A DNA stretch of 64,000 bases from Chlamydiales bacterium (GTDB taxonomy: Bacteria > Chlamydiota > Chlamydiia > Chlamydiales > JAAZZY01). Both the position numbers and the translations under genes were made by a program. Shown here one piece after another: positions 1-64,000 of the stretch. Below the pieces are notes generated by a model. That model was not told the DNA's origin and did no database searches. It saw only the letters and a list, made by a program, of their open reading frames with translations. Location of the stretch: contig CBDBKM010000005.1 in assembly GCA_965206695.1 (NCBI GenBank), positions 73,244 to 137,243 of the forward strand, read 5' to 3'. Within the stretch, counting starts at the first letter, position 1; each line of letters opens with the position of its first letter.

Positions 1-1
1 A

Positions 2-2198: not shown

Positions 2199-2228
2199 TA
2201 TGATACAGATAAGAAATTTATTTTAGGC

Positions 2229-2619: not shown

Positions 2620-2639
2620 TTTTGCGTAACATAAGTTAC

Positions 2640-3996: not shown

Positions 3997-4089
3997 ATTA
4001 TATAAAAAATTTGGTCTTTAATTTTTGATCTCAAAATAGTTTTTTGACCCTTTGTTAAAGGGTTTTATAACAAGAACGCCTACTAAGAT

Positions 4090-7679: not shown

Positions 7680-7839
7680 CAGTTTCCAAGGCTATGAGTT
7701 TTTATGAAACCCTTTCCGTATGCCCTACGGTAATTTTGAAAAACAACAGTATTGAAATAAAAAGAACTGTTTAATACAAGAGAAGAACGCTCTCATCCCA
7801 ATGCTAAAGCAAAGGGTTTTCTCGCTTGATTGTCATAAA
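7680..7839 (-). repeat. non-autonomous IS605-derived mini-element (LE hairpin plus degenerate RE-like part)
   Basis: TGCCCTACGGTA...GAAATAAAA...ACGCTCTCATCCCAATGCTAAAGCAAAGGGTTTTCTCGCTTGATTGTCATAAA is homologous to 21540-21665 and to the LE ends of the IS605 copies. It has no coding capacity. Confidence 0.45.
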
Positions 7840-13420: not shown

Positions 13421-13749
13421 ATAATCAAATGGCCCGGGTTACGCTATTACAAAAAATTGGTCCTTTATTGATTGATATGATAGCACAACATGCCAATCAG
13501 GATTTTACCCATGTCGATACTCATCGAGATATCCTTGATACATTTGCCAATCTCTCAGACCTTAAAAAACAAGTTCAAGATGAGTTTTTAAAAGAGAAGG
13601 TGTTATCCAAAGAATTATCTATCCTCATAGAAAAGAAAAAAGAAAGCCTTTTAAAAAAAGATATTCTAATCAAACAATTAAAAGAGCCGGAAAATGCCGG
13701 GTTAAAAAAGAATGAAGAAGAAACCCTATTTTCTGAATTTACCAAATTA
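13421..13749 (+). pseudogene. recN: recN, internal fragment
   Basis: RVTLLQKIGPLLIDMIAQHANQDFTHVDTHRDILDTFA matches the RecN region ...LVDIHGQHEHQxLL...LLD. It continues into coiled coil (LKKNEEETLFSEFTKL). It is bounded by IS5-like and IS630 insertions, and the Walker A part and C-terminal half are absent. Confidence 0.65.
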
Positions 13750-21913: not shown

Positions 21914-23021
21914 TATACCCCTTATGAATCAAAGTGCCGATTCTAAGACTTGAAAATGATCATTGATTCGTTTCCTCATTGATTGAGCAATAGAGGGCCA
22001 AGTATTTTCAAAAAATCCGGTAATCGATCTCCGAAATTCTTTAGCAGAATTAAAAAACCGATTATTGCGACAATATTCATTCATCACTTTCCATAATCGT
22101 TCAATGGGATTGAGGTTAGGACTGTAAGAAGGTAAATAATAGAGAATAATACCTTGTTTTTCTGCTTCTTGTTTGGTCTGAATACTTGTATTATAAGGGC
22201 CTTGATCTAAAATAAGATGGATATTTGGAGCTGAGGGGTATTTTGACCGTAGCAAAGCAAAATGCTTTGCCATGGTACCGCTATTTAATGTTTCATAAGC
22301 ATCTATTGTTACCTTCATACTGTTTAAATTGATAGACCCCATAAGATTCATTCGAGTACGAGAAGCTGTTGTTGCAATCAATTTATCTGTTCCCGGTCGA
22401 ATCCAACCATAAGAAATTTTAGTTGCCATAGTTGGATGTACACCATCAGCAAATTCAACAGGCTCATTTTTAGGCAAAGATGCCATAAGCTTGGCGTAAA
22501 ATTGCATCCAAGCTTTTTGTTGATCAGAATTTGCCTTAGCCGGTGTACCTTTAGGCTTTTTATAGGAAAAACCATGTGAGTGTAGCCAAGAAGTCATCCC
22601 TGAAATCGTATAAACAATGCCATATTTCGCGAGAACATAAGAACAGATATCTTCTACTTTGACATAGGTATGAGTTGTTAAATGTTTAATGAATTCTTCT
22701 GACTGTGGCGCAAGAAGTTTACTGACTGAACCACCGCTTTCTATATGCAATTGCTGTTTATTTTGATATTCTTTAATGTGACGAGACACTGTTTCATCGT
22801 CTAAAAGCACAGCTTCAGCAATACGAGTATTACTCCAACCTTTATTCGACAATAGAACAGCCTTGATACGATCTCGTATACGACCATTCTTTTCTCGTTT
22901 ATGTTGCTGTCTGAGATGCTTTTCTTCTGATAGTGTTAAAAATGAATTCATACAAAACAATTTACACTATACGAATACAAAATATCCGGAGGTTTATTCG
23001 TGATGAGTATATACTTAGTAC
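21914..23021 (-). mobile_element. IS630-family IS (fourth lineage), apparently intact
   Basis: Imperfect terminal IRs beginning TATAC, with TA at both junctions. It carries the full-length ORF 21929..22960. Confidence 0.8.
21929..22960 (-). CDS. IS630-family transposase, full length
   Basis: 343 aa in a single frame. N-terminal HTH (WSNTRIAEAVLLDDETVSRHIKEY). DDE residues in FADGVH, LILDQGPYN and YSPNLNPIERLW. Confidence 0.9.
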   Translation of the reverse strand: MFCMNSFLTLSEEKHLRQQHKREKNGRIRDRIKAVLLSNKGWSNTRIAEAVLLDDETVSRHIKEYQNKQQLHIESGGSVSKLLAPQSEEFIKHLTTHTYVKVEDICSYVLAKYGIVYTISGMTSWLHSHGFSYKKPKGTPAKANSDQQKAWMQFYAKLMASLPKNEPVEFADGVHPTMATKISYGWIRPGTDKLIATTASRTRMNLMGSINLNSMKVTIDAYETLNSGTMAKHFALLRSKYPSAPNIHLILDQGPYNTSIQTKQEAEKQGIILYYLPSYSPNLNPIERLWKVMNEYCRNNRFFNSAKEFRRSITGFFENTWPSIAQSMRKRINDHFQVLESAL

Positions 23022-37945: not shown

Positions 37946-38050
37946 TTGACAGCTCCCAACCCTAAAGGGAAGGGATTCCTAATTCATTGACCACTGCTAA
38001 CAAACAAGCTAGTCTAACATGATCTCCAAAGGCTTAAATTACCGACTGCC
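37946..38050 (-). repeat. IS605 RE / putative omegaRNA module 5
   Basis: Reverse complement reads GGCAGTCGGTAATTTAAGCCTTTGGAGATCATGTTAGAC...CCCTTCCCTTTAGGGTTGGGAGCTGTCAA. It lies upstream of, and co-oriented with, proB. Confidence 0.7.
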
Positions 38051-39130
38051 CCTGCGGTATCGATATTAATAGATGCATTAAGATCTCTATCGTGTGTTAC
38101 TTTGCAGTTTGGACACTGCCAACTTCTCACACTTAAATCTAAAATTTCTATTTGGTACCGGCAGGCAGAGCATAGTTTTGAACCGGCAAAAAATTGATCT
38201 AATTCCACTATATTTCTTCCGTACCATTCACACTTATACTTTAAAAATGTTAAAAACCGGCTCCATCCTGCATCCGATATATGCTTGGAAAGTTTTTTAT
38301 TTTTTAACATCTTATTAATATTTAACCCTTCTATCGTGATCGTTTGGTTTTCACGAGCCAACTTTGTAGAAAGTTTATGATGAAAGTCCTGCCTTATATT
38401 TTTTATCTTCGAATGTATCGAAGCCACCGATCTTCTTTTTTTGAGTCTGTTTTTACCTTTGACTTTAGCTTTGCTAAGAGAACGTTGTTTTCTTTTTAGT
38501 CTTTTCTTATGAAATCTAAAAGGTTTAGGTGCCGTAATCTTTTTCCCTGTAGAAAGAGTTGCGAATGTCGTTAATCCTAAATCTATACCGACAGAATTAT
38601 TTCTCTTCTCAAAAGGGATCACTTCTTCTTCTACTATATAGGCTCACAAAATACCTGTCACAAGAGCCTTTTGTGATTGTTATACCTGTTGGTGTACCTA
38701 AAAAACACCTTGACCAATGTATTTTTAATCTGTCTTTAGATTTTGCAATCTTAAGATTAACCCCATCCCAACTAAATGCTGACTTAGTTAATCGTATTGC
38801 CTGCGTACTGTGTTTGTTTTTAAAGCGAGGGAAATTTGACCTTTTTTTAAAAAGTTTAAAAAAGCTCTATCAAGATCTCTAAGACTTTGTTGCAGACAAA
38901 CAGAAGAAACTTCGTTTAACCAAAGAAACTCTTTGTTTTGCTTAAGACTTGTCAAGAATGCCGATGTTTTAGAATAACTTACATTCTCTTTGTATTGCCT
39001 GATATTTCTTGATCTTAAAATTTAAAGCTTGATTATATACAACTCCGGAACATCCAAAGCTTTTTGTAAGCAACTCCTTTTGTTTTTTCGTTGGATAGAA
39101 TCTAAATTTATATGCTTTTTTGATCATCAT
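38014..39130 (-). pseudogene. tnpB: TnpB homolog, N-terminal half frameshifted
   Basis: N-terminus MMIKKAYKFRFYPTKKQKELLTKSFGC at 39130. The C-terminal ORF 38014..38622 carries GIDLGLTTFATLS, the Zn finger CSACRY...CPNCKVTHDRDLNASINI, and an extra G that shifts the last codons. Confidence 0.85.
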
Positions 39131-43052: not shown

Positions 43053-43155
43053 TTGACAGCTCCCAATCCTAAAGGGAAGGGATTCCTCATTCAACGACCC
43101 TTGCTAACAAGGGTTAGTCTAATACGATATCCAAAGGCTTAAATTACCGACTGCC
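43053..43155 (-). repeat. IS605 RE / putative omegaRNA module 7
   Basis: Reverse complement GGCAGTCGGTAATTTAAGCC...CCCTTCCCTTTAGGATTGGGAGCTGTCAA. It overlaps the tnpB stop (..NIDTEGQSVI*). Confidence 0.7.
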
Positions 43156-44097
43156 CTTCGGTATCTATATTATAGGCTGCGTTAAAATCTCTGTCATGCA
43201 AAGTATTACATTTGGGACATTTCCAAGATCTTATATCGCAATCCAATTTTCCTATATTGTGCCGGCACATGGAGCATCGTTGTGTACCGGGAAAATTCTG
43301 AGGTAATTCTACTATGTTCCTTCCGTACCAATCACATGTATACTTTAAACATGGTAACAATTGACGCCATCCTGCATCTGATATACCTTTCGCATATCTT
43401 TTATTTTTTAACATACTTTTGATATCTAAACCTTTAATTATGATTGCTTGGTTTTCATAAATCAATTGTGTAGAAAGTATATGATAAAAGTCATGTCTTA
43501 TATTTTTAGAATGAATCTTGGCAACTTCGATTCTGCTTTTGTTTCTGTTTGAGCTGTTAGATTTAAATTTACTTAAACGTTTTTGATTTTTTTTTAATTT
43601 CTTTTTAAAATGCTTAAATGGCTGAGGGGAAAGTAACTTTTTACCGTTGGATGTTGTTAGACAACTTTCCGAACCCGGATCTATTTCGGTAGAATGATCC
43701 GGTTCTTTAGACTTTGCAATATATAAATGCATTTCCAGCCCATCTAAACGCGGAATTGGTAAACGAAATTGATTAGGTAGTGTTTTTAGTTTTGAATGTA
43801 GGAAAATGAACCCTCTTTTTAAAACAATTTGAATACGCTCTATCAAGGTTCCTAAGGCTTTGCCGTAGACAAATAGAGATGCTTCCTTTAACCAAAGAAA
43901 CTCTTTATTTTAAGATCTGTCAAGAATGCTGATATCACAGAGTTAGGAGATACTTTCTTTTTCTTCTTGATATTTCTTAACCTTAAAATTTAAAGCTTGA
44001 TTATACACTATCCTGCAACAACCGGAGCTTTTAGCTAAGAGCTCTTTTCGTTTTTTTGTTGGGTAGAATCTAAATTTATAACGTTTTTAATAGTCAT
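43139..44097 (-). pseudogene. tnpB: TnpB homolog, N-terminal part degenerate
   Basis: ORF 43139..43846 carries the RuvC/Zn-finger part (CSMCRHN...CPKCNTLHDRDFNAAYNI). The N-terminal KAYKFRFYPT region is frameshifted and shortened. Confidence 0.85.
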
Positions 44098-48618: not shown

Positions 48619-49206
48619 TTTATGACAATTAAACAAGAAAATCTTTTGCTTTAGCATTAGGATGAAAGCGTCTATTTGTTTTTTTTGATTTTGGATATAC
48701 TTCCTAATTGTATATTCATTTAGTTTTCCCACATTATCAACATACTACGATCTTATCCATAATGTAGGCAATCGAGATTTTAAACTTGAGAATGCTTGCC
48801 TTAACAAGCGACCGGTGTATCCTTTCAGTTGACCAATTGCAAACTGTGAAGATTGAGTGGGTTGAGTTTTGATAAATATATGTACATGGTCAGGCATAAT
48901 AACCTCCATAGAGAGTTGATTGGCTTTCGCATTTTAATCACTTTCTTAGTCTTTTCTCAGTATTTTCTTAGTACACAACAATGCTCCATATGCCGGTACA
49001 ATGTAGGAAAATTAGATTACGATATAAGATCTTGAAAATGCCCCAAATGCAATACTTTGCATGACAGAGACTTTAACGCAACCTATAATATAGACACCGA
49101 AGGGCAGTCGGTAATTTAAGCCTTTGGAGATCGTGTTAGACTAGCATTTGTTAGCAATGATCGTTTGAATAAGGCATCCATTCTCTTTAGGGTTGGGAGC
49201 TGTTAA
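48619..49206 (+). mobile_element. IS200/IS605-family element, copy D (internal-deletion derivative)
   Basis: From left to right it carries the LE TTTATGACAATTAAACAAG, a reverse tnpA 3' half (to about 48900), a tnpB C-terminal scrap (CSICRYNVGKLDYDIRS.KCPKCNTLHDRDFNATYNIDTEGQSVI) and an RE. 588 bp. Confidence 0.8.
49103..49206 (+). repeat. IS605 RE / putative omegaRNA module 8 (terminus variant TGTTAA)
   Basis: GGCAGTCGGTAATTTAAGCCTTTGGAGATCGTGTTAGACTAGC...TCTCTTTAGGGTTGGGAGCTGTTAA. It abuts the stop codon of the minus-strand ORF 49203..49676. Confidence 0.65.
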
Positions 49207-49812: not shown

Positions 49813-52476
49813 ATGAATGGAATTACTTTGCTAAACGAAACAAAACCTAAAAAGATTTTGTTAAAAGATTATAAGAAACCGAACTTTCTCATCCCATCAT
49901 GTGAACTCTCATTCCAATTAGCTGATGAAAATACCATTGTTTCAAGCAAACTCAATATTGTTCGTAATTCGGATGAAAACAACAAAAATGCTCCCCTTGT
50001 ATTAAATGGGGAACATATGAAATTATTATCTGTTACTTTAGATGGAGTATTACTGGATTCTTCAAAGTATGAAGTTGATAACAAATTCTTAACAATTCCG
50101 AATGTCCCAAATCAATTCTTATTAGAAATTTCTAACGAGATCAATCCAAAGAATAATACGGCTTTAGATGGCTTGTATAAATCGGGCGATATCTTTTGCA
50201 CACAAAATGAGCCGCTTGGATTCAGACGCATCTCTTATTCTCTTGATCGTTCAGATGTTATGTCAAAATATACAACCACTGTTATTGCTGACAAAAAGCT
50301 CTATCCCATACTTCTTTCAAATGGTAATGCAATCGATCGAGGTGATTTAGATGACGGTAAGCATTTTGTAACTTGGAAAGACCCCTTTCCTAAACCCAGT
50401 TACCTTTTTGCTTTAGTAGCAGGCGACTTAGGAATGATACAAGATTCCTTTACGACCCGTTCCAAAAAGGAAGTGTCCTTGCAAATTTTTTGCGATAAAG
50501 GGAATGAAGAAAAATGTGGCCATGCTATGGAGTCATTAAAAAAGTCAATGAAGTGGGATGAAGAGGTCTTTGGACTTGAATACGATCTTGATATTTTTAT
50601 GATCGTGGCAGTCGATGCATTCAATATGGGAGCCATGGAAAATAAGGGCCTAAATATATTTAATACCGGCTGTATTTTGGCAAATCCGAAAACAGCTACA
50701 GATGCCAATTTTGAACGAATCGAAAAAGTTGTTGCTCATGAATACTTTCATAACTGGACAGGCAATCGAGTAACATGTAGAGATTGGTTTCAGTTAACTT
50801 TAAAAGAAGGTCTTACTGTTTTTAGAGATCAAGAATTTTCAGCTGATATGAACGTTCGTTCAGTGCAGCGCATACAAGATGTCATAAATTTAAGATCCGA
50901 ACAATTCCCGGAAGATGCAGGTCCCATGTCCCATCCTATTAAACCCGACTCCTATATACAGATTAATAATTTCTATACTTCAACTGTTTATTGTAAAGGG
51001 GCGGAAGTGATCAGAATGATCCACACGCTTATAGGCAAAGAGGCTTTTCGAAAAGGGATCGATACCTATTTTGAACTCTACGACGGACAGGCGGTGACAA
51101 CAGAAGACTTTGTTCATACAATGGAACTTGCTTCTAAAAAGGATTTATCCCTGTTTAAAAATTGGTATTCTCAATCAGGAACACCCTTAGTGACTATCCA
51201 TTTTAATTATCATCATAAAAAGCAAACCTTAGAAATTACAGTTGAACAAAAATGTCCCCCTACACCGGATCAAAACACTAAACAGCCTTTCCATTTTCCT
51301 TTATCCATAGGCCTTTTAGATCAAAAAGGAAAGGATATGGCAATTCAGCTAAATGAACAAAAAGGGACGACTATTTGTCTTAATGTGACACAGAAAAAAG
51401 AAATCTTTGAAATTTCAAATGTTTATGAACAGCCGATTGCATCAGTTAACAGAAATTTTTCTGCTCCCGTAAAAATTCAAGCTCCATATACTCGTAAAGA
51501 TTATATGTTTCTAATGGCGCATGATAGTGATGATTTTAATCGTTTCGAAGCCTCCCGAGAACTTGCAAAATCGATTATGAATGAACTAATTGAAAAAGAA
51601 GAAGACAAAACCTTACTAAAAATAGATGAAGGTTATTTGGATACATTTAAGACCCTATTGGAAAATAAGAATCTTGACCATGCACTAAAAGCTAAAGCGA
51701 TGATCCTTCCCGATGAAGCTTCTCTGATAAATGAACAACAAGTCATTGACTTTCATGCAACTCATGAAGCTAGAGAGTTTGTCTATCGGCAAATTGCCCA
51801 AAAGTATCAAGATCAACTTCTTTCATTATATGAAGAATTGCATGACACCGGTGATTATCGAATTGATCCCGAGTCTATTGGTAAAAGAAGTCTTAAAAAC
51901 GCTTGTTTAAATTACTTGGTAAAAAGCAAAGAAAAACAAATGATCGCACTGGCTTTTAAACAATTTCAAGAAGCTAATAATATGACAGATGAGTTTGCTG
52001 CTCTTTTTATACTTGCCAACATAGACTGTGAAGAAAAGGATAAGGCTTTGGTTCTTTTCTATGACAAATGGAAAGAAGATACGTTAGTGATGAATAAATG
52101 GCTTGCTGTCCAAGCCATATCCAAGCTTTCCAATACTCTTGAAAGAGTTAGGTCTCTTATGTGCGATCCTATCTTTGATATCAGCATTCCTAATTTAGTC
52201 AAAGCTCTTCTCGGAAGCTTTATCAGTAATCTGATTGTATTCCATAATAAAAATGGCAAAGGCTATTCTTTCATTGCCGATAAAATTATTGAGCTCGATA
52301 CTCTCAACCCGCAAATAGCCTCGGGACTTTGTAGTGCTTTTAAATATTACGCTAAAGTTGATGCGATGAGAAAAACGATGATGAATAAAGAAATGGTGAA
52401 AATTCTCGGAAAAAAGGATTTATCCAACAATGTTTACGAAATCATTTCGAAAACAATTCATCCTGATGGAAGGTAA
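49813..52476 (+). CDS. pepN: aminopeptidase N (M1 family)
   Basis: 887 aa with GAMEN and HEYFHNWTGNRVT...WFQLTLKEGLTVF. Confidence 0.95.
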   Translation: MNGITLLNETKPKKILLKDYKKPNFLIPSCELSFQLADENTIVSSKLNIVRNSDENNKNAPLVLNGEHMKLLSVTLDGVLLDSSKYEVDNKFLTIPNVPNQFLLEISNEINPKNNTALDGLYKSGDIFCTQNEPLGFRRISYSLDRSDVMSKYTTTVIADKKLYPILLSNGNAIDRGDLDDGKHFVTWKDPFPKPSYLFALVAGDLGMIQDSFTTRSKKEVSLQIFCDKGNEEKCGHAMESLKKSMKWDEEVFGLEYDLDIFMIVAVDAFNMGAMENKGLNIFNTGCILANPKTATDANFERIEKVVAHEYFHNWTGNRVTCRDWFQLTLKEGLTVFRDQEFSADMNVRSVQRIQDVINLRSEQFPEDAGPMSHPIKPDSYIQINNFYTSTVYCKGAEVIRMIHTLIGKEAFRKGIDTYFELYDGQAVTTEDFVHTMELASKKDLSLFKNWYSQSGTPLVTIHFNYHHKKQTLEITVEQKCPPTPDQNTKQPFHFPLSIGLLDQKGKDMAIQLNEQKGTTICLNVTQKKEIFEISNVYEQPIASVNRNFSAPVKIQAPYTRKDYMFLMAHDSDDFNRFEASRELAKSIMNELIEKEEDKTLLKIDEGYLDTFKTLLENKNLDHALKAKAMILPDEASLINEQQVIDFHATHEAREFVYRQIAQKYQDQLLSLYEELHDTGDYRIDPESIGKRSLKNACLNYLVKSKEKQMIALAFKQFQEANNMTDEFAALFILANIDCEEKDKALVLFYDKWKEDTLVMNKWLAVQAISKLSNTLERVRSLMCDPIFDISIPNLVKALLGSFISNLIVFHNKNGKGYSFIADKIIELDTLNPQIASGLCSAFKYYAKVDAMRKTMMNKEMVKILGKKDLSNNVYEIISKTIHPDGR

Positions 52477-53731: not shown

Positions 53732-53793
53732 TTAAATGAGTAAAAAAAATCCCAATGCTAAAGATAAAGAGTTTTCTTGCTTAATTGTTATAA
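53732..53793 (-). repeat. IS605 tnpA-3'/LE scar
   Basis: AAATGAG..AAAAAAAATCCCAATGCTAAAGATAAAGAGTTTTCTTGCTTAATTGTTATAA aligns to the LE of copies A and B with deletions. It contains the PPTase stop codon. Confidence 0.55.
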
Positions 53794-54452
53794 CAAATTG
53801 CTAGTGTATGTTCTTTTAGTTTGTTTGTAAAAACATAGATGTGATGACCATTTCCATGAAGAATTACCTCTTCGGAATTCTTTACCGGTAATTTTTCCAG
53901 TAAGGGAATCTCATTAGTTTTAAAACCTGTCCCTAAAGCTTTTAATAAAGCTTCTTTAGCACACCAAAATTGATAGAAAGTATCTAATGGATCTTTAGAA
54001 TTTAATATGTAATTTCTTTCTTTATCATGCAAAATAGACGATTTTATAAAGTTGTCATAATCACGTCTCTTCTCAATATCAACACCAATTGAAAGTTCTG
54101 AATGAAAACCGATGAATGCATAGGCTTTAGTGTGTGACAAATTAAAATGTATGGGCAAGCCTTCAATAAAAGGCTTGCCGACGGGATTTAGCTTTATTTC
54201 AATTTGTAAGGGTAAGCAATCTAAAAGCTGCGCTAAATGAAATCTTAGAAGTGCATGAGTAATAATAGATTTATGCTGATGTTCTTCATACACATATTGC
54301 TGTGATCTATCTAAGGAAGCTTTATCTAGCAACTTTATCGCTTGTAAAACTTCATGTTTTTGAATCAACTTGAGATCAAGTAGATAAAAAATACCTTTAT
54401 CAGAATGAAGAGAAAGAGGTTTTGATCGCTTAAGTAAATCGAATTGTTTCAT
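53781..54452 (-). CDS. Sfp-type 4'-phosphopantetheinyl transferase
   Basis: 223 aa with GKPF, FNLSHTKAYAFIG, GVDIE and FWCAKEALLKALGTG. Confidence 0.88.
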   Translation of the reverse strand: MKQFDLLKRSKPLSLHSDKGIFYLLDLKLIQKHEVLQAIKLLDKASLDRSQQYVYEEHQHKSIITHALLRFHLAQLLDCLPLQIEIKLNPVGKPFIEGLPIHFNLSHTKAYAFIGFHSELSIGVDIEKRRDYDNFIKSSILHDKERNYILNSKDPLDTFYQFWCAKEALLKALGTGFKTNEIPLLEKLPVKNSEEVILHGNGHHIYVFTNKLKEHTLAICYNN

Positions 54453-54471
54453 TATACATATTTCTTTTATC

Positions 54472-57400
54472 TTAAGTCTCTAATTTTGAGTGCAGCTTAG
54501 TCTGATAATTTTTTAAATAAACATTTAATCGTTTAGCTAAATCAGTAATATTAGGTTGCATGAGCATACTGATATGATTACCTGCTACCTCATGATTTTC
54601 AATACTTCCTTCTATGAGATGATGCCAAGTAGATGAAACGGTAATATCCGCTATTGAAGATAATCTGTCCTCTGCCTCAAAAAATAGCACATCACCAAAA
54701 TATTTTTTTGGCTTGTAGTTATCAAAGGCAAGCCAATGAACTTTCATCTTTTCAAAGAGTTTTTCCTTTTCAGAAAAGGATGAAGGTTCAAAGTGCATAC
54801 TTTTCATCAATATTTCTATTTGGTCATGTCTTGAAAGACCTTTAAGCTCTTCTGCTAGTTTGGGATTAGCAGAAAAAAGTTCAGCTAAGGTCGTTATCAT
54901 TTCAGTTTCAGTATCTACCTGTACCTTGTGAGGCAATTTCTCAGGGCAAATAATATCCAACATTGCCAGTAAAGAAATATCTTCAGATTCTTCTTTTAAC
55001 CGTATCGCCATTTCATAAGCTATAAGGCCTCCAAAAGACGTTCCTAGTAATTGGTAAGGCCCTTTAGGTTGTATCTTGCGAATTAACTGAATATACTTAG
55101 CAGCGATCTTTTCAATTGATATATGATCTCCAATTTCATAATCCGGACTCTCTAAACCATAAATAGCACTATCGTGTTTCAAAGCCTCAACTAAATCTTT
55201 ATAACAAAAGACGGAACCACTAATAGGATGCATGCAGAATAAGGGTTGATTTGTATTACCGTCTTTTAATTTTACAACTAAATGTGTTGAATCTTTTACC
55301 TGAATTTGTTGATGAATCGCTTTACCTAGTTTTTCTATTGTCGAATATTCCAATAGCATATTAGAACGAATTGAAATTTGGAATAATTCTTGAATTTTAG
55401 AAGTAATTTGAATAGCTAATAATGAGTCTCCTCCTAAATGAAAGAAATCATCGTGAATACCAATCGACTCTAACGCTAAAGCCTCTTGCCAAATAGATCT
55501 CAATGATCGTTCCAAATGATTTAAACTATGGTTTATCTCTTTGTGTACCTTCGGAGTATTTGTAGTAGAAGAATCCTTCGTAGGTGGGTAGATCCAGAAC
55601 TCTTTTTTCTTAAAAGGATAAGTGGGCAAGGAGATTCTATGAGATTGATTATTAACACAAAGCCTACCCCAATCTATATCAAGACCACGCGACCAAAGCT
55701 TACCTAATAATGAAAGATGAAATTTTGAACTGTCCTTTTCTACTGTAGGTAGTGATGGAGAAATAATATTTTCACGGTGAGTTAATTGATTTGTTTTGAT
55801 GAAACGGCAAACACTAGAGCCCGGGCCAACTTCAATGATTGCTTGATTCGGTCTTTTTAAAAGATCTTGAAAAACTGATAAATGCTTATTTAACGGGATC
55901 GAAGAATTGGAATAGGTCATCACTTTTTCCATTGTCTCTTTTAAGATGCCGGGATTCTCAATATAGCCTTCTAAATAGCGACCTATACCCCATGTAATGA
56001 TTCTATCCGGAAAGAGACCCCGGCTTTTCCATAACAAAAATAACGAATATGATATGATGAAATATGATAGATTCACCACCTCTTTTTTCTGATCTTGAAG
56101 AGAAGGATTTTTTATATCTAATGCCTCGCAGCAAAGAAAAGGTCGAAGGTTAATATCGAAATACTTTTTCGATAACTCAATAAGGTGATCGATACTGTCT
56201 CTAAAACAAGGCTCCTTTTCATAGAGATATTGTGAGGTATTAGTCCACTCATCTTGAATATCGGGAAGAATAAAAATAACATCGGGCTTTAAATCAACAG
56301 ATTCGAAAGTCTGATGATCATATGATAGCCTTGCAAGTAACTCCTCTTTATTGGAACACATAATCGCCTCTCTATAAGAAAAGCTTTTTCGACCGACTTG
56401 CAAGGTATAGGATATATCTCTTAAAGAGAACTCCGGATTCTTAAGCAAATGGTTTTTTAAACGAGAAAACATCTGATTAAGTGCCCATTCTGATTTGGCA
56501 GACAAAATAATTAACTCATCTCTATTCTTATTTTGAATAGTCGGTAAGATCGGCGCTTCTTCTAAAAGAATACAAGCATTTGTCCCTCCAAAACCTAAAG
56601 AAGACACTAATGCTCTTCTTGGATGAGATTTTTTCTCCCAATTTTTTAACTCTGTATTCACGTAAAATGGAGTTTTAGCAAAGTCGATAGTTGGATTAGG
56701 AGTATCAAAGTGCAAACTAGGAGGCAACATTTGATGGTTTAAAGCTAATGAGCATTTAATAAAGCCTGCTACTCCGGCCGCTTCCATCAAATGACCAATA
56801 TTACTTTTAATAGAACCTATAGCACAATAACCCGTTCTTTGAGTCTGTGCTTTAAAAGCTCGGTCTAAAGCATGAATTTCAATCGGGTCTCCCAGAGGCG
56901 TAGCAGTGCCATGAGTTTCAATATAGCCTATTGTTTCCGGATGAATGTCAGCTTTCTTAATAGCAAGGGAAACGGCTTCAACTTGCCCTTCAATACCGGG
57001 AGCTGTAAATCCAATTTTTTCTCCCCCATCATTGTTCATGCCATATCCGGAGATAACCGAATAAATATGATCGTTATCTTTCAAGGCTTGATCTAAAGGT
57101 TTTAAAACAACCACTCCAACACCACTTCCCGGTACTGTACCTTCAGCCTTTTTATCAAAAGATCTGCAATGACCATCCGGTGAAAAAATCATCCCATTTT
57201 GATAGAGATAACCTCGCTTTTGAGGGATTGAGAGGGATACTCCTCCTGCTATAGCAATATCACACTGATTGCTAAAAAGATGATCGCATGCAACGCAAAT
57301 AGATACCAAAGAGCTCGAACAAGCTGTTTGAATAGCAAGACTAGGCCCTTTGAGATTAAGCTTATATGAGACTCTTGTGGTTAAATAATCTTTTTCGTTA

Positions 57401-57855
57401 CCGATATGAGAAAGATATTCATCTGAATCATTTCGAAAGTCTTTATTAGGATATAGGTTATGTAAGTAATACAAACTATTACTACTTCCTGCAAATACCC
57501 CAATAGGTTGAGAGCTGTCCTTAGAATATCCGGCATCTTCTAATGCTTCATAACAGGATTCTAAAAACAGTCGATGCTGCGGATCCATTAATTTCGCTTC
57601 TTTAGAACTGATACCAAAAAAATTAGCATCAAAAGAAGCTATATCATCGACTATCCCTCTTGCAGGTACATAATTGGCATTATCTATCTGTTCATCAGAT
57701 ATTCCCGATATATGTAAATCGTGTTCAGAAAATTTTGAAATAGATTCCCTTTTTTTAGAAATATTATCCCAAAAGGCATCCGGATTATTAGCGCCCGGAA
57801 AGCGGCTTATCATTCCTATAATAGCAATCTTATGATCCTTTTTATTAGGAATCAT
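54472..57855 (-). CDS. single-module polyketide synthase: KS - degenerate AT - carrier protein - thioesterase
   Basis: KS motifs TACSSS, ETHGTATPLGDP and NIGHLMEAAG. The KS-AT linker is followed by an AT relic with TWGIG instead of GHSxG. The carrier domain has FFHLGGDSLLAIQ, and the TE has GTSFGG ... GNHISM. Confidence 0.9.
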   Translation of the reverse strand: MIPNKKDHKIAIIGMISRFPGANNPDAFWDNISKKRESISKFSEHDLHISGISDEQIDNANYVPARGIVDDIASFDANFFGISSKEAKLMDPQHRLFLESCYEALEDAGYSKDSSQPIGVFAGSSNSLYYLHNLYPNKDFRNDSDEYLSHIGNEKDYLTTRVSYKLNLKGPSLAIQTACSSSLVSICVACDHLFSNQCDIAIAGGVSLSIPQKRGYLYQNGMIFSPDGHCRSFDKKAEGTVPGSGVGVVVLKPLDQALKDNDHIYSVISGYGMNNDGGEKIGFTAPGIEGQVEAVSLAIKKADIHPETIGYIETHGTATPLGDPIEIHALDRAFKAQTQRTGYCAIGSIKSNIGHLMEAAGVAGFIKCSLALNHQMLPPSLHFDTPNPTIDFAKTPFYVNTELKNWEKKSHPRRALVSSLGFGGTNACILLEEAPILPTIQNKNRDELIILSAKSEWALNQMFSRLKNHLLKNPEFSLRDISYTLQVGRKSFSYREAIMCSNKEELLARLSYDHQTFESVDLKPDVIFILPDIQDEWTNTSQYLYEKEPCFRDSIDHLIELSKKYFDINLRPFLCCEALDIKNPSLQDQKKEVVNLSYFIISYSLFLLWKSRGLFPDRIITWGIGRYLEGYIENPGILKETMEKVMTYSNSSIPLNKHLSVFQDLLKRPNQAIIEVGPGSSVCRFIKTNQLTHRENIISPSLPTVEKDSSKFHLSLLGKLWSRGLDIDWGRLCVNNQSHRISLPTYPFKKKEFWIYPPTKDSSTTNTPKVHKEINHSLNHLERSLRSIWQEALALESIGIHDDFFHLGGDSLLAIQITSKIQELFQISIRSNMLLEYSTIEKLGKAIHQQIQVKDSTHLVVKLKDGNTNQPLFCMHPISGSVFCYKDLVEALKHDSAIYGLESPDYEIGDHISIEKIAAKYIQLIRKIQPKGPYQLLGTSFGGLIAYEMAIRLKEESEDISLLAMLDIICPEKLPHKVQVDTETEMITTLAELFSANPKLAEELKGLSRHDQIEILMKSMHFEPSSFSEKEKLFEKMKVHWLAFDNYKPKKYFGDVLFFEAEDRLSSIADITVSSTWHHLIEGSIENHEVAGNHISMLMQPNITDLAKRLNVYLKNYQTKLHSKLET

Positions 57856-58169
57856 TTTTTTCTCCTATTAGTTAAGTGAACTAAAATTTTTAATTACGAT
57901 TTGATTCTTTTAAAACTCATATTTTCAAATAATTCAGAAAAATTAAAATAAATATTCAATATTAGTTAAGTACTAGCTGTTTTCTTTTGAGATGCGGTAT
58001 TAAATCATATAATAAAATTATTAATTGTCATTCAGATCAGTGCAAAATTAATTAACATTAAACAAACATTCGATTGAATATTCGATGTTCCTTATTAAAA
58101 AATCAATAATTAAAAAAAATATTTAATAAATAAATTCATTAAAATCCTCAAATCAATTAAAGATCATTT

Positions 58170-59335
58170 GAATAACTCATGTTACGCAAAATCAAATAGC
58201 ATATCATTTTTCCGGCTCATGAAAGGTAGCCTGATTTGCTTTGATCAATAATTTGTATTTTAGGGCAAAATGGTTAAGATGGGTTTTAATTTTTAAAAAT
58301 TCCGGCTTGCAATAAGATAGGAGAGATGCAAAAATATGGTTTTTTTGAGATTTTTCAACCTTGGTAGGCGATTTTGCAAGGCTTGCATTTTGCTTAATAG
58401 ATTTGTGATACTCTTCTATTCTCCACCGTTTTTTGTAGATCTCATAGAGTGAGTCAGCATCATGGTTTAAGTCGTTGCTCACAAGGTATAGAGTCCCCGT
58501 GGAATTATCTTCGTTTTTGAAGACTTTTTTCACTAAGGAAACGGGAAAAGATAAATCTTTAAGCCGGACTATCTTTTTTTCTCCATCCTTGAAATTAATC
58601 GATTCAAGATTGTGATACTGACCTTTTTTTCTTGCTTCTTCTGAGAAAGCGATGAGTCTGTTGGACTTCATGCCTAAAATAAATTTCTTATCTGTATCAT
58701 AATGAATAAACTCCCTATTTTTTTTAGCTCCAAACCAATTATCTGCAAGAATATAATCAAACTTGACCTGATTCCGTATAGCTTGCTTTATTTGTTTTTG
58801 AAATAATTCATTTTTAGTGACATCGGATTTTCTTGTTTCCTTTTTGGTTTTGATATCACAAAAATGTACTGTTTTAGATATGACTTCATATCCGATAGGA
58901 AATACAATGTCATCATAATGAACAAGAGTAGATAAAATGTTAACCCCTTTGATACACCGACCTTTAGCATGAGAAAAATGCCATGCAATAATATCATTTT
59001 CATCCGTGTAAGGCTTCTCTTCGATAGAATCATCTATAATCAAAACACCGGCTTTACCTCCTGAATATTTTTTCAGCGTGTCTTTTACATAGCACCATAA
59101 ATCTTTTCCTGAAAATTCTCTCTTATTGAGAAAACGAGTAATTTTATCATGGCTGATCTCACCATCTAATAAAGCTGACAGTCCGGTAGCCGTAGCATAT
59201 TGGTTTTGGCTGATAAGGTAATCTGTATATATATCCGGGAGCTGTTTTGACATATTTTTTCCTCATAATTAGAGAAAAAATTATAAAAATAAAAAACTTT
59301 CTTTACATCACCTTTGCGGTAAGGTGAGTGAATAA
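58170..59335 (-). mobile_element. IS4-family insertion sequence, apparently intact (boundaries +/-15 bp)
   Basis: Imperfect IRs containing ACTCAnnTTAC(C)GCAAA. It carries ORF 58204..59253 and sits in the AT-rich divergent region between the PKS and NRPS genes. A second, broken copy lies at 1172-2638. Confidence 0.75.
58204..59253 (-). CDS. IS4-family DDE transposase
   Basis: 349 aa with LIIDDS, LADNWFG and the Y-2-R-3-E-6-K signature in YKKRWRIEEYHKSIK. Confidence 0.88.
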   Translation of the reverse strand: MSKQLPDIYTDYLISQNQYATATGLSALLDGEISHDKITRFLNKREFSGKDLWCYVKDTLKKYSGGKAGVLIIDDSIEEKPYTDENDIIAWHFSHAKGRCIKGVNILSTLVHYDDIVFPIGYEVISKTVHFCDIKTKKETRKSDVTKNELFQKQIKQAIRNQVKFDYILADNWFGAKKNREFIHYDTDKKFILGMKSNRLIAFSEEARKKGQYHNLESINFKDGEKKIVRLKDLSFPVSLVKKVFKNEDNSTGTLYLVSNDLNHDADSLYEIYKKRWRIEEYHKSIKQNASLAKSPTKVEKSQKNHIFASLLSYCKPEFLKIKTHLNHFALKYKLLIKANQATFHEPEK

Positions 59336-59395
59336 GTGCCTATATCAGATGGCCCCAAATATAGAATTGAATATAAATCCAATTTGTTTTAACAT

Positions 59396-59434
59396 GAACA
59401 ATCAAAACAAATATAATATTTGTTTTGATTGTTC
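59396..59434. promoter_or_regulatory. 39-bp palindrome (19-bp perfect arms, 1-nt spacer) upstream of the NRPS gene
   Basis: GAACAATCAAAACAAATAT-A-ATATTTGTTTTGATTGTTC followed by TTTTTT, ending 54 nt before ATG 59488. Confidence 0.45.
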
Positions 59435-59487
59435 TTTTTTGATTATTAAGATTTAAATAGAATAAGGAGTAATTAAGAAGTAATGAT

Positions 59488-61878
59488 ATGCTTGATCTAG
59501 GATTTGAACGACCCATTACTTGCGATCGTAGCAAGGATAGGATTAGTTATTCTTCTTTTTTTTCCAAAGAACTGACAAAAAATCTTCGTCATTTTTCTTT
59601 AGAATGGAAAATTCCGGCAGCTCTAATTTTATTAGGAGCATATCAGGTGCTCCTTTACCGCTACTGCAGCAAAAATGAGTTTGTAATAGGAATCCGGGAT
59701 TCTAACAAAAATCAGACGGCTCACTTAAATTGTCAAGGACAGGATACATTCCAAAAGCTATTAACTAGTTTACAGCTTTGCAAAACTGTTAATTGCACCC
59801 CGATTAAACCTAACTTCTTTTTTTCTACAGAAAAAAACGCCACATCTTTGCTTGACAATGCTTCTATAGATTTACATTTTTCAATACTTCAAAAAAATGA
59901 ATCATATTTAGTCACAGCCGATGCCTTAACTAAAGCATTCTATCCTGATACTATTGAGAATATGGTAAATCATTACTCACGTTTATTAGAAAACTTATTA
60001 AAGTACCCGCATGAAGTATTAGAGCATGTTCCTTTTTTATCACCTAAAGAAGAAGACTTATTACTCAACACATTAGCAAGGACAACAACAGAAAGCTACC
60101 CTGATAATATCTTAGATACTTTTACTGATTTCGCAAAACATCTCCCAAATAAAATAGCCGTTAAAGGCGATATGGATTCTTTAACTTATAGTGATCTTGA
60201 TATTCAATCTAATCAGCTAGCATCGTATTTAACAAAAATGAAAATTGGAGCTGATGATGTGGTTGCTGTTAGCACCTCACATTGTCCTAAGTTGATAATA
60301 GCCCTTTTGGCAATTATCAAAATAGGGGCTACTTACCTGCCTTTAGATCCTAGTTATCCTGAAATTCGTTTGCAAGAGATGCTCAAAGATGCCAAACCAA
60401 AAATTTTATTAACGCAATCTAAATGGGTCGTTAAGTTTAACAAATATTCGGTATCTATTTTACAAATAGATACCGAATGGAATCAAATCCAAACATCCGG
60501 TAAAGAGTTCGTATATGCTAAACCGGACCCTTTTTCAACAGCTTATATTATATATACATCAGGTTCTACAGGAAAACCTAAAGGAATCATGATTGCATAT
60601 CGAAGCCTTTCCCACCTATCATTAGAACGAAAAATGTTTTATCCTGAGGAAACGATACCCCTACTATTAGGATCAATAGCTTTTGATATCAGCTTGTTAA
60701 TGATATTTCATACTTTAATGACTGGTGGAACGCTATGTATTCCTGAGCACAGCAAGTATGTAGATGGAGAAGCATTAATTCAATTTATGGAGCAGCATTG
60801 TGTGAATTATCTCATGTGTGTTCCTTCATTTTATGCTATGCTCCTTGAAAAATCTATCCCTTTACCTGCTCATTTGTTGATGGTGAGTCTTGTAGGTGAA
60901 GTCATTCCCAACTCGTTACCTATTTTGCACCAACAATTAGCTCCTGAAGCAATTTTAAATAATGAATATGGGCCTTGTGAAATAGCAATAGGGAGCAATC
61001 ATGCTATAGTTTATGATTCAAAATCAAAAAAAATCAACCGGATGACAATTGGTAAACCTCTTCCAAATACAGATGTATTTATTCTCACACCTAATCTTTC
61101 GCCTGCTTTGTTAGGAACAAAAGGAGAAATTTGTATCGGAGGTATTGGATTAGCCAAAGGATACTTAAATAATAAGAAATTAACAGAAGAAAAATTTGTT
61201 GATGTTTCTTTTAATAGAAAAACGCCTAATAAGCTCTATCGTACCGGAGACTTTGGACGTCTGCATCCAGATGGTAATTTTGAATTTTTAGGACGTATGG
61301 ATACCCAAATAAAATTGCGTGGGCATCGAATAGAACTTGATGAAATAGAACGCAAGCTTATGCAACATATTGACATTGATGAAGCCGTTATTCTTCTTGA
61401 TAAGAATAACGAAACTCAAGGGTATCTTGTAGCTTATTTTACCACAATGTCAGGTAATGAGTTATCTATTGACGCAGTGCGAGACTTTCTCAAGCAAAAT
61501 CTTCCAAAATTTATGATCCCTACTCATTTTCTTCAACTTAAAAACTTTCCTCGAACCTTAATTAAAAAGATTGATCGGAAAGCTTTGCCAAAAATTTTAA
61601 ATTCCATTCCAATTAAGAATACCCCAGAAACAAGCTCTGAAATAAAATCTAAGCTATTGAGCATTTGGAAAGATGTTTTAGGTAATCAAGAAATCAATCA
61701 AAATAAGAACTTCTTTGACCTTGGTGGAAATTCTTTATTGCTTGCAACCGTCCAAACAAAAGTAAAAGGCGTTTTTGGTGTTAACATTCCTATGATTGAG
61801 TTCTTCAATTTTCCAACACTTGATAAACTTGCAGTACATTTGAAAAAATCATTAACTCTCATCAAATTAAATTCATAA
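59488..61878 (+). CDS. non-ribosomal peptide synthetase module: partial C - A - T
   Basis: The first ~190 aa correspond to the C-terminal subdomain of a condensation domain, with no HHxxxDG. A-domain motifs are YIIYTSGSTGKPKG, NEYGPCE, YRTGD, GRMDTQIKLRGHRIELDEIE and IDRKAL. The T domain has FFDLGGNSLL. Confidence 0.9.
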   Translation: MLDLGFERPITCDRSKDRISYSSFFSKELTKNLRHFSLEWKIPAALILLGAYQVLLYRYCSKNEFVIGIRDSNKNQTAHLNCQGQDTFQKLLTSLQLCKTVNCTPIKPNFFFSTEKNATSLLDNASIDLHFSILQKNESYLVTADALTKAFYPDTIENMVNHYSRLLENLLKYPHEVLEHVPFLSPKEEDLLLNTLARTTTESYPDNILDTFTDFAKHLPNKIAVKGDMDSLTYSDLDIQSNQLASYLTKMKIGADDVVAVSTSHCPKLIIALLAIIKIGATYLPLDPSYPEIRLQEMLKDAKPKILLTQSKWVVKFNKYSVSILQIDTEWNQIQTSGKEFVYAKPDPFSTAYIIYTSGSTGKPKGIMIAYRSLSHLSLERKMFYPEETIPLLLGSIAFDISLLMIFHTLMTGGTLCIPEHSKYVDGEALIQFMEQHCVNYLMCVPSFYAMLLEKSIPLPAHLLMVSLVGEVIPNSLPILHQQLAPEAILNNEYGPCEIAIGSNHAIVYDSKSKKINRMTIGKPLPNTDVFILTPNLSPALLGTKGEICIGGIGLAKGYLNNKKLTEEKFVDVSFNRKTPNKLYRTGDFGRLHPDGNFEFLGRMDTQIKLRGHRIELDEIERKLMQHIDIDEAVILLDKNNETQGYLVAYFTTMSGNELSIDAVRDFLKQNLPKFMIPTHFLQLKNFPRTLIKKIDRKALPKILNSIPIKNTPETSSEIKSKLLSIWKDVLGNQEINQNKNFFDLGGNSLLLATVQTKVKGVFGVNIPMIEFFNFPTLDKLAVHLKKSLTLIKLNS

Positions 61879-61899
61879 CATTTAAGCTTTATAACGGCG

Positions 61900-63096
61900 T
61901 TATGTATGTAACTCTTTTGGCCTTATTTTTTCATATTTAATAAATGGAAACCAAGAAACTATAATGAGGCTCAATGAGAAAGTTATAACGTACATTATAT
62001 GAAGCTGAAAAAAGTTATGAAACAAAACAATAAATATTGAAATGAGCAAAGCAATAGTATCAGTCGATTCAATCAAACCATAAACTCTACCTTGCTCATG
62101 ATAAGCGGCTCCTTTAGCAAGCATCGAAAATAAAGTTGCAGGAAGAATAGCTATACCGATTGTATAGAAATAAAAACAACCTGCCAATAGAGAGAAATTT
62201 GGGATGTGTGAAAATAAAAAATCTACATAAAATGGCAATAGAGATACGGACCCAAAAAGAAAACCAATTCTACTCATCATGCTATCAGAAACTCGATTAC
62301 AAAATTTCAGTGCCAAAATCCCGGTTAAATACCCCACCGATATTGTTATTGCAACCCAAAAAAATTGTTGAATTTTGAAATCAACGTATAACAAGAGAAT
62401 GCAATAAATCGCAATTTCCCACAAAAGAAATGCAAAAATCGCACTTAACATATAAGTCTTTTTAAGATCATTTATTAATAGCTTTATCTCTTTAATGATT
62501 AGATCTAAAAAACGACTATTCTTCAATGTACCACGGCTGTTCTTATCGCGGATATCTGTAAAGGCCTTAATACAAAAATAAATAATCAGAATATAAAATA
62601 CTATCATTATTGCAATGGCAATCTGTTCTTTAATATAAAATTCCTGAAAAACTAATAACGCATAAGCTACTGCATAAGAAGCAGTTGAGAGTCCAAATGA
62701 AAAGCGATAATTGCTATTTTGAGTATCTGCAATCGCGGCCCATGAAAGAGGGATTGTATTCCCGAAGCCTCCTTTAATAAAGCTTAATATGATTAATATT
62801 GGTAAAAACTTTACAATTGTCAAATTCAATAAAAACAATAGAATAATAGTTATCGAGGTGGCTGATAATGAAAAGACTAAGCTTTTTTTTCTACAATATA
62901 AATCCGAAAAAGATGCTTGGATAGGAGCTGCAAGACTTTGCAAAGTAAGAACACCTACAAAAAGTGCCATTTGCAACGACAATATTTGCTCATTGAAAGC
63001 ACGAAAGATGTAGTTTTCACAAATAACATCTCCAAAAATAAATAACAGTATCAATAAGAGAGAGTTAGTCGGTTTTGAGACATTATTTTTAAACAT
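61900..63096 (-). CDS. MFS-type transporter (candidate exporter of the NRPS-PKS product)
   Basis: 398 aa with about 12 TM segments, convergent with the NRPS gene. Family assignment rests on topology only. Confidence 0.65.
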   Translation of the reverse strand: MFKNNVSKPTNSLLLILLFIFGDVICENYIFRAFNEQILSLQMALFVGVLTLQSLAAPIQASFSDLYCRKKSLVFSLSATSITIILLFLLNLTIVKFLPILIILSFIKGGFGNTIPLSWAAIADTQNSNYRFSFGLSTASYAVAYALLVFQEFYIKEQIAIAIMIVFYILIIYFCIKAFTDIRDKNSRGTLKNSRFLDLIIKEIKLLINDLKKTYMLSAIFAFLLWEIAIYCILLLYVDFKIQQFFWVAITISVGYLTGILALKFCNRVSDSMMSRIGFLFGSVSLLPFYVDFLFSHIPNFSLLAGCFYFYTIGIAILPATLFSMLAKGAAYHEQGRVYGLIESTDTIALLISIFIVLFHNFFQLHIMYVITFSLSLIIVSWFPFIKYEKIRPKELHT

Positions 63097-63192
63097 AAAA
63101 ATTTCCTAAATACCCATACTGAGAGTATCGAGATTCGCATAATACAAAAGGATCAAATAACACACACCCAACCAAGAGTAAATTAATGTGAT

Positions 63193-63649
63193 TTATATTG
63201 TTCGTTTCCATAGAAGCTTGGAATGTCTTTCTTGAAGATTAGTACAAGTTAATATTAATTGATTTCCCAAAAGAGTTGGATATCTTATTTCTGGCATTTG
63301 GATCAGGTTTATGAATCCAGATAGTTCAGGATGATGAATAATAAGATTTTCCTTAATTTCATATCGTCCGATATACCCAGCGTAATTTTCTGCAACCTCT
63401 ATTTTCCCCTTATCAGTACCTTCTTGAAATTGAAACTGACTTGATTTTAGAGCGATTAGAAGACATAATTATGTACGGAGACAATGTCACATAACCTAAT
63501 GCATTTTGGCCATAAGGATGTGTTATCTTGTCATTCTTATCGATTATAACATACGAAAAAAGTTGCCAGGCTCCTTCAAGATCCGACTTTTGCATATAAA
63601 ATTTCCAAACAATTACTTGAATACATTTAATCAAGTAGTAATTTAACAT
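63193..63649 (-). pseudogene. lipocalin-like domain protein, frameshifted
   Basis: DLEGAWQLFSYVIIDKNDKITHPYGQNALGYVTLSP, then in another frame GKIEVAENYAGYIGRYEIKENLIIHHPELS...GNQLILTC. This is the pattern of lipocalin-like beta-barrel domain proteins. Confidence 0.5.
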
Positions 63650-63792: not shown

Positions 63793-64000
63793 ATGGAGGA
63801 GTTTTTTATACCTAAAGTCTATCGGTATTTAACCTATGAACAAAGATGCCAAATATATACTTTAAAAAAAAGAGAAGATTCTATTGAGGACATTTCTCAA
63901 GAATTAAATATTAATAAGATTACTATTTATCGAGAATTAAAAAGAAACAGCTATAAGGGCAAATATATTTATATTGTGGCACAAATCAAAGCTATAGTAC
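63793..64000 (+). CDS. IS30-family transposase, N-terminal part (runs off the window)
   Basis: LTYEQRCQIYTLKKREDSIEDISQELNINKITIYRELKRNS is the IS30 HTH signature (LTxxERxxI...STIxRELxRN). Confidence 0.75.
   Translation, partial: MEEFFIPKVYRYLTYEQRCQIYTLKKREDSIEDISQELNINKITIYRELKRNSYKGKYIYIVAQIKAIV

Follow-up and report, generated by a model that had tools for sequence, protein, structure and literature searches.

A probable rearranged copy of a conserved chlamydial NRPS-PKS operon in an insertion-sequence-rich genome

We analysed a 64,000-nt stretch of DNA from a Chlamydiales bacterium (GenBank assembly GCA_965206695.1, contig CBDBKM010000005.1, positions 73,244 to 137,243; hereafter, the window), which contains at 53732-63649 a compact gene cluster for a hybrid nonribosomal peptide synthetase (NRPS)-polyketide synthase (PKS). 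Judged from its sequence, this region probably represents, in rearranged form, a small biosynthetic operon that is conserved among environmental Chlamydiota; we place the probability of this description, which covers both the identity of the locus and the encoded chemistry, at about 0.7. An original prediction, made from the letters alone, had proposed a horizontally acquired island, possibly a relic, with a 4'-phosphopantetheinyl transferase (PPTase), a PKS, an NRPS and a major facilitator superfamily (MFS) transporter. Profile searches recovered all four genes where it had placed them, as well as the ketosynthase (KS), adenylation (A), carrier (T) and thioesterase (TE) domains whose recovery it had proposed as a check.

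In related chlamydial loci the genes follow the order (methyltransferase)-MFS-[C']A-T-KS-(AT remnant)-T-TE-lipocalin-PPTase, where C' denotes a partial condensation (C) domain and AT an acyltransferase domain. The window holds homologues of all five linked gene families, four of them intact with all catalytic motifs. Compared with the operon at locus L008, identities are 49% for the NRPS, 42% for the PKS, 45% for the PPTase and 45–47% for the lipocalin-like gene, while the KS is 56% identical to that of locus L001 (Candidatus Acheromyda) and the MFS protein shares 43% identity along its entire length with the one encoded directly upstream of the A-T gene in the same locus. Co-directional NRPS-PKS-Lipocalin_5-PPTase genes are found in L008 and L012, with the MFS gene upstream in the P0012 locus, and the order methyltransferase-MFS-A-T-PKS occurs in L001 and L014; in L009, L010 and L011 the MFS and methyltransferase genes diverge from A-T-PKS. 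Fused A-T-KS-T-TE proteins of about 1470–1520 aa are also present among the homologues, and dozens of chlamydial genomes and metagenome contigs carry the cassette.

The best species-representative match of the PKS is Candidatus Acheromyda pituitae (Rhabdochlamydiaceae), with 56% identity in the KS region, and the window proteins are 41–56% identical to the cluster proteins of this organism and of a Chlamydiia metagenome-assembled genome. An NRPS of Simkania is 51% identical to that of the window, and the named close homologues are all chlamydial (Rhabdochlamydiaceae, Chlamydiia and Simkania). In a rough neighbour-joining tree, the window KS groups with those of P0017, P0026 and P0079, which have C'-A-T proteins as partners. 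Together they fall within a chlamydia-type clade that is monophyletic and has cyanobacterial and Chloroflexi KS-AT-(KR)-T-TE enzymes as its sister. Upstream of the cluster lie a Bcr/CflA efflux gene and pepN (49813-52476). In a 5.8-billion-sequence collection PepN has no match above 60% identity, and the named matches are from Parachlamydiaceae/Chlamydiales, so the window comes from a chlamydial lineage that lacks a close relative among sequenced genomes. The neighbourhood of the nearest PepN homologue is not syntenic with the window.

The features of the region are as follows (window positions, with strand in brackets where one applies):

53749-53788: 40-nt fragment of a multi-copy IS605-associated repeat, overlapping the PPTase stop codon
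53781-54452 (-): Sfp-type PPTase, 223 aa (Pfam ACPS 3.2e-15, AASDHPPT_N 2.6e-07)
54472-57855 (-): single-module type I PKS, 1127 aa, with KS, KS-AT linker, vestigial AT, T and TE
54541-55248 (-): TE domain, aa 870-1105 (PF00975 2.5e-26)
55315-55506 (-): carrier (T/ACP) domain, aa 784-847, GGDS Ser811 (PP-binding 6e-15)
55507-56319 (-): AT remnant and post-AT linker, aa 513-783 (alignment with P0031 and 15 family members)
56704-57831 (-): KS domain, aa 9-384 (PF00109 ketoacyl-synt 1.9e-73, PF02801 Ketoacyl-synt_C 3.6e-41)
58169-58175: target-site duplication TGAATAA, left copy
58176-59328 (-): IS701-family insertion sequence (IS) with imperfect terminal inverted repeats, between the PKS and NRPS genes
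59329-59335: target-site duplication TGAATAA, right copy
59389-59417 (+): promoter-like site TTAACA-17-TATAAT, 11/12 matches, the best of the region (consensus scan)
59488-61878 (+): NRPS loading module, 796 aa, with C' (aa 1-207), A (aa 213-690) and T (aa 722-784)
59488-60108 (+): C', partial condensation domain (Condensation 40 bits)
61900-63096 (-): MFS transporter, 398 aa, presumed exporter (MFS_1 1.4e-11, weak but significant)
63202-63595 (-): Lipocalin_5-family pseudogene (tblastn with the intact L008 orthologue)
63811-64000 (+): IS30-type transposase N-terminus, 63 aa visible, running off the window end (HTH_38 8.8e-11)

The domain set and its motifs are those of a hybrid NRPS/type I PKS: an A domain, a KS triad, two carrier serines together with a PPTase, and a TE. 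Motif checks confirmed that the KS triad, the carrier, the TE and the complete A-domain core with its T domain are intact, as had been predicted. In the NRPS, the A domain matches AMP-binding (1e-67) and scores 370 bits against TIGR01733 (cut-off 317), with motifs A1–A9 found by pattern and A10 in the alignment. It keeps the equivalents of Asp235 and Lys517, which bind the alpha-amino and carboxylate groups, and among solved structures it is closest to NRPS modules such as LgrA. The following carrier (PP-binding 3.9e-13) has its serine at Ser749 (GGNS). The ten-residue specificity code reads DILCSVEIGK and is conserved as D[IV]LCS[VA]E[IL]GK in at least 12 homologues; nothing was found for DILCSVEIGK in the searchable literature.

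The Condensation match at the NRPS N-terminus corresponds to the tail of the domain (aa 123-192 on profile positions 386-455 of 456). Two blocks of C' (aa 1-207) align with internal C domains of large NRPSs, at positions ~290-361 and ~412-490, which indicates that C' is the last ~40% of a C domain; neither the HHxxxD motif nor the N-terminal lobe was found in C' by motif check or alignment. When C' was searched against 1.8 billion representatives, matches were mostly to internal C domains of giant NRPSs, a result that does not give the size of the family. The closest NRPS homologues (788-830 aa, 99% query coverage) share this starting point in the C domain, so the truncation is common to them and is not a sign of recent decay. 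For the same reason, truncation of the NRPS N-terminus by the neighbouring IS701 element was ruled out. A further NRPS homologue, P0125 (1183 aa), carries an embedded methyltransferase domain.

In the PKS, the KS triad is complete (TACSSS Cys179, HGTAT His315 and NIGH His355), and the TE triad could be located by alignment with homologues and a MucE-like TE (GTSFG Ser940, a conserved Asp at ~967 and GNH His1094). The PPTase has the expected GKP, FNLSH, GVDIE and WCAKEALLK motifs. Pfam profiles assign PKS aa 386-512 to KS-AT linker families, and the stretch of ~270 aa that follows has no Pfam match at threshold, Acyl_transf_1 included. Scanned alone, residues 495-765 gave 15.5 bits with Acyl_transf_1 against a cut-off of 32.7, covering profile positions 16-122 of 319. 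In alignment with a complete cis-AT homologue (P0031 from Argonema, GHSIG), TWGIG stands in place of the GHSxG motif, and the window PKS lacks ~160 aa at the C-terminal end of a normal AT, HAFH included. Thus, neither alignment nor Pfam searches revealed a functional cis acyltransferase (GHSxG serine, HAFH) in the window PKS, and we conclude from these comparisons that its cis-AT is non-functional. The AT serine is kept in 0 of 15 aligned family members, in which the remnant ranges from about 0 to 350 aa. Since a TWGIG-type AT is common to the whole family, this apparent damage is not recent decay either. The related locus L012 (8274-11379) has its PKS split into a KS ORF (open reading frame; 435 aa) and a linker-T-TE ORF (608 aa) with a 29-nt overlap, which reflects either a frameshift or a true split of the enzyme.

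The fifth gene family is represented by a lipocalin-like gene that had been described as frameshifted, and this was borne out. Its two frames (63595-63452 and 63438-63202, the source of the 45–47% identity to the L008 orthologue) are separated by a single frameshift near 63440-63450 and a small deletion, and a Lipocalin_5 profile fragment was detected at 63413-63649 (-). Compared with related operons, this frameshift appears as the sole gene-destroying change specific to this genome. The broader claim that several parts of the cluster are damaged therefore holds for the lipocalin-like gene; the AT and C truncations are family-wide and the IS701 element is intergenic. For annotation, the lesson is not to take a 'degenerate' AT or a 'truncated' C domain for decay, as either may be a stable trait of its family.

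The tight co-directional order of the relatives is not kept in the window. The NRPS gene lies on the strand opposite to the PKS gene, with the PKS-PPTase pair and the NRPS gene diverging from a shared intergenic region, and the lipocalin-like gene lies upstream of the MFS gene, whereas in relatives it is found between the PKS and PPTase genes. Missing from the earlier list of parts was a full-length IS701 element that occupies this intergenic region. It has a full-length DDE transposase (58204-59253, 349 aa; NF049921 316 bits, cut-off 250), inverted repeats at its ends (CTCATGTTACGCAAA and TTTGCGGTAAGGTGAG), a target-site duplication and more than one copy in the window, all features of the IS701 family. 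The second copy (1183-2638) is flanked by its own 7-bp duplication, AAAGTAA, and its centre is replaced by a nested IS630 element (about 1260-2185; ORFs 1321-1692 and 1674-2177). The intact 7-bp duplication around the element at 58176-59328 indicates a simple transposition into an intergenic site, interrupting no gene, and rules out this element as the cause of the inversion. The divergent PKS/NRPS arrangement is then older than the insertion, and the intergenic region before the insertion would have been about 472 bp.

Both genes have kept a promoter-like site of their own despite the insertion. On the NRPS side of the IS701 element, ~70 nt ahead of the NRPS start, the 11/12 sigma-70-like site is overlapped by a near-perfect 39-nt AT-rich palindrome (59396-59434) that is followed by a T-run; on the PKS side, a 10/12 site is present at 58031-58004 (-), upstream of the gene. 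The palindrome could be an operator or a terminator, and 59389-59434 could be a candidate promoter with operator. Promoter and terminator scans of the region gave no more sites than expected from shuffled sequence, so the sites serve as weak hints only.

The earlier view of a minimal hybrid NRPS-PKS with a non-functional cis-AT, which joins one amino acid to one C2 unit and releases the product by its TE, is supported by these data. Hybrid NRPS-PKS logic is textbook knowledge, and from it, with the domain set and intact motifs read from the sequence, we infer the following pathway. The PPTase would prime both carrier domains, and the A domain would activate one alpha-amino acid and load it onto its own T domain. 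The vestigial C' lobe is expected to be non-catalytic, leaving the amine free. Because the cis-AT lacks its serine and half its fold, the PKS carrier would be malonylated in trans, most likely by FabD of fatty-acid synthesis, since no cluster-encoded AT is present in any related locus; no dedicated free-standing AT was found in the cluster, among the window ORFs scanned or in the seven related loci. The KS could then catalyse one decarboxylative Claisen condensation to a 4-amino-3-oxoacyl thioester. Lactam closure by the TE, as demonstrated experimentally for MucE, would give a 5-substituted pyrrolidine-2,4-dione (tetramic acid); alternatively, hydrolysis would give a beta-keto acid that decarboxylates to an alpha-aminoketone. 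The MFS protein would export the product. With two synthase genes and a PPTase, the cassette is close to the smallest possible NRPS-PKS line.

The layout raises the possibility of a different chemistry, in which a fatty acid is activated and condensed with a second acyl unit to yield a lipid. A carrier-KS-AT-carrier-TE protein with a separate adenylating enzyme, as in Pks13 and FadD32, resembles the present pair, and mycolic-acid Pks13 ranks second among the NCBIfam matches of the KS region. However, that match (481 bits) is far under the Pks13 model cut-off of 2100, and the AT that Pks13 requires is dead in the window PKS. Since the A domain is of the amino-acid type, as seen from its TIGR01733 score, its Asp235 and Lys517 equivalents and its LgrA-like relatives, we rejected the lipid reading, which is very improbable. 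A further question is whether the conserved operon still works in this genome or has become a relic, eroding in a degrading, IS-ridden background and making no product. Erosion would explain why the lipocalin-like gene is frameshifted here, yet intact and translationally coupled in three related operons, why the operon order is broken relative to relatives and why an IS701 element sits inside the cluster; the window as a whole shows IS proliferation, nested elements and a topoisomerase III fragment. On the other hand, four ORFs of 223-1127 codons remain uninterrupted in 35% GC DNA, with every catalytic motif in place and a conserved specificity code. The IS701 element hit no ORF and left promoter-like sites beside both genes. 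The lipocalin may also be dispensable, given methyltransferase-MFS-A-T-PKS relatives that have no linked lipocalin gene. On balance, we consider a non-functional relic somewhat unlikely, and give even odds to the cluster being functional at present.

The same elements bear on whether the cluster is a genomic island of about 10 kb, recently acquired and mobilised by the ISs at its edges. At the right edge, the predicted IS30 transposase is present. At the left edge, the claim of an IS605 end finds weak support: only 53749-53788 matches IS605-associated repeats (87.5% over 40 nt, E 0.001, to 7795-7833 and 48625-48663), a family (D5, I17, I19) that also adjoins the tnpB fragments at 38014-38622 and 43139-43846. 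The bracketing elements thus exist, but they are not distinctive. At least 10 IS-related ORFs lie in the 64 kb (four IS630, two IS605 tnpB, two IS701 and IS30 among them), so dense throughout that any 10-kb stretch can be expected by chance to lie between two ISs, and the two flanking elements belong to different families, which excludes a composite transposon. The comparison of composition and codon usage with the flanks, suggested in the original prediction, also went against recent acquisition, as the cluster matches the window's other genes: GC content is 0.31-0.36 in cluster genes versus 0.34-0.42 in other window genes, GC at third codon positions is 0.23-0.27 versus 0.26-0.36, and the codon-usage distance of the cluster genes is comparable to that of the window's housekeeping genes. 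Together with the chlamydial homologues and the monophyletic KS clade, these data do not support recent acquisition from outside the phylum, and a recently mobilised island is improbable. What the island reading has in its favour, besides the two edge elements, is that the genomic surroundings of cluster homologues vary, with RHS/YD-shell toxin genes as frequent neighbours. This suggests that the cluster is mobile inside the phylum, and the operon may have moved within Chlamydiota. In an IS-saturated genome, however, IS flanks tell little about horizontal transfer. We see in the window an ordinary, though tidy, example of an accessory operon that was reshuffled during IS proliferation.

Several points weigh against our reading of a rearranged operon with the chemistry set out above. 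Every member of the family is known from genes alone. The unusual gene order may in part be an assembly artefact, the draft genome being rich in ISs. The code DILCSVEIGK depends on a GrsA ruler for its positions and fits no nameable substrate. Among the window ORFs scanned, which were not all of its ORFs, no malonyl transferase was seen. The window TE shares just 25% identity with its MucE-like counterpart, and MucE rejects unacylated Leu-SNAC (PMC10161427), which makes lactam closure on a free amine an extrapolation. Finally, L008, L012 and the P0012 locus share a conserved, translationally coupled lipocalin partner that is broken in the window; were this partner essential, the window pathway would be dead.

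Going further, the cassette could represent a widespread, conserved pathway by which environmental chlamydiae turn one unusual amino acid into an N-unsubstituted tetramic acid, an alpha-aminoketone or a pyrazine-type compound for interactions with hosts or competitors. We offer this tentatively and think it rather doubtful. The recurring RHS/YD-shell toxin neighbours are in keeping with this role. If the idea were true, minimal NRPS-PKS lines would gain a new accessory in the lipocalin-like protein, acting as cyclase, chaperone or carrier, and the window would be a natural lipocalin-minus variant of the pathway. To our knowledge, and as far as literature searches showed, no chemically identified secondary metabolite has come from any chlamydia. 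Its minimal size, wide recurrence and conserved code make the cassette a tractable target for heterologous expression.

Related loci differ in the genes that surround the cassette. Large RHS-repeat/YD-shell toxin genes adjoin A-T/KS-T-TE in four of seven loci (L008 6880-11490, L011 15152-20440, L014 14241-19613 and P0012 locus 1-4229). Loci of the Rhabdochlamydiaceae type add several SAM methyltransferases, a GNAT acetyltransferase and genes of the aromatic ammonia-lyase/aminomutase family (L010 1-351 and 645-7906, L014 20220-23070 and L001 4026-6770), which hints at methylated or aromatic-amino-acid-derived products in these loci.

Elsewhere in the window, housekeeping genes (folD, rnhC, zwf, gnd, glk, gshAB, sodB, proAB and pepN) lie among the IS elements. 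Two IS630 copies (11537-12385 and 13747-14596; repeat families D1 and D2) are 99–100% identical and 2.2 kb apart, suggesting a very recent transposition, and a further IS630 transposase was found at 21929-22960. The IS605-family tnpB ORFs at 38014-38622 and 43139-43846 are both truncated (OrfB_IS605 and Cas12f1-like TNB), and their surroundings contain diverged direct and inverted repeats (D3, D5, D7, I1-I17) at 23.1-24.1, 38-39.6, 42.1-44.6 and 48.6-49.2 kb. A 258-aa ORF at 33107-33883 matches only positions 469-673 of the 863-aa DNA topoisomerase III model and is probably a gene fragment, in line with ongoing gene decay. The gshAB gene (26755-29256, 708 bits) encodes a bifunctional glutamate-cysteine ligase/glutathione synthetase of the GshAB type, a fusion known mainly from Firmicutes and some other groups.

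Biosynthetic gene clusters (BGCs) have been reported to be widespread in non-Chlamydiaceae chlamydiae, from genome predictions only (PMC9666466, PMC13229535); antiSMASH surveys of Chlamydiota mention NRPS homologues related to those of Simkania negevensis (PMC9666466). For the present cluster, chlamydial genome papers yielded only generic antiSMASH statements. BGCs in chlamydiae and hybrid NRPS-PKS logic are thus already known, and the specific cassette is uncharacterised. The uncharacterised chlamydial NRPS/PKS clusters link the same five gene families as the window, which differs from them in its rearranged order, inserted IS701 element and frameshifted lipocalin-like gene.

Outside the phylum, the cyanobacterial and Chloroflexi KS-AT-(KR)-T-TE PKSs (Argonema, Microcoleus; about 1280 aa) have the same KS-AT-T-TE order and are 45–50% identical over the KS, the linker and the start of the AT. 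The cyanobacterial-type P0031 has a complete AT with GHSIG and HAFH, whereas in the chlamydial proteins the serine is gone and the domain is shorter by 160-350 aa. The window PKS also resembles trans-AT PKSs in having no functional cis-AT and a KS followed by a KS-AT-linker/docking remnant. The best solved-structure matches of its KS include trans-AT KS domains, with the bimodule core 7zma at the top (PMC9491710), and chains deposited as hybrid NRPS/PKS (6mhl, 5elp). Unlike trans-AT systems, the window cluster has no dedicated trans-AT gene and a single module, and its KS clade is sister to cis-AT enzymes.

The closest characterised analogue is MucD/MucE (RtcN/RtcK), which make mutanocyclin and reutericyclin in Streptococcus mutans and Limosilactobacillus reuteri. 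In that system, MucD (C-A-PCP) and MucE (KS-ACP-TE) need a malonyl transferase in trans, and the TE closes the ring by lactam formation, releasing a five-membered tetramate (PMC10161427). The window has the same order of an NRPS module ending in a carrier, then KS-carrier-TE without a working AT, and would likewise use one amino acid and one malonyl unit loaded in trans. For a direct comparison we used a muc-like cluster (L015) on the L. plantarum plasmid pLQ801, which comprises TetR genes, HMGS-like, thiolase and DUF35-type zinc-ribbon genes, a C-A-T NRPS, a KS-T-TE PKS and a PPTase. As in the window, a dedicated PPTase and an MFS gene adjoin the synthase genes. Identities to the window are 44% over KS and linker, 25% over T-TE and 30% over A-T, and C' does not align. 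The MucD-like protein of L015 has a full C domain (Pfam 5-427), whereas the window keeps the last ~40% only, without HHxxxDG. In MucD the starter C domain is complete and catalytically required, as judged from H135/D139 mutants (PMC10161427); without this motif, no N-acylation is expected in the window. ORFs for the HMGS-like, thiolase and DUF35 trio (MucABC) were not found in 53.7-63.7 kb or in the related loci, and the MucE-like KS is an outgroup to the chlamydial and cyanobacterial clade in the neighbour-joining tree. Membership of the Muc/Rtc group was therefore rejected, as the window has neither an active starter C domain nor the acetylation trio and the synthases are not orthologous; the AT was probably lost in the window lineage independently of Muc/Rtc. 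Unlike Muc/Rtc, the chlamydial family keeps an AT vestige and a lipocalin-like partner, and what sets it apart is this combination of a dead AT vestige, a C' stub, a lipocalin partner and a conserved substrate code.

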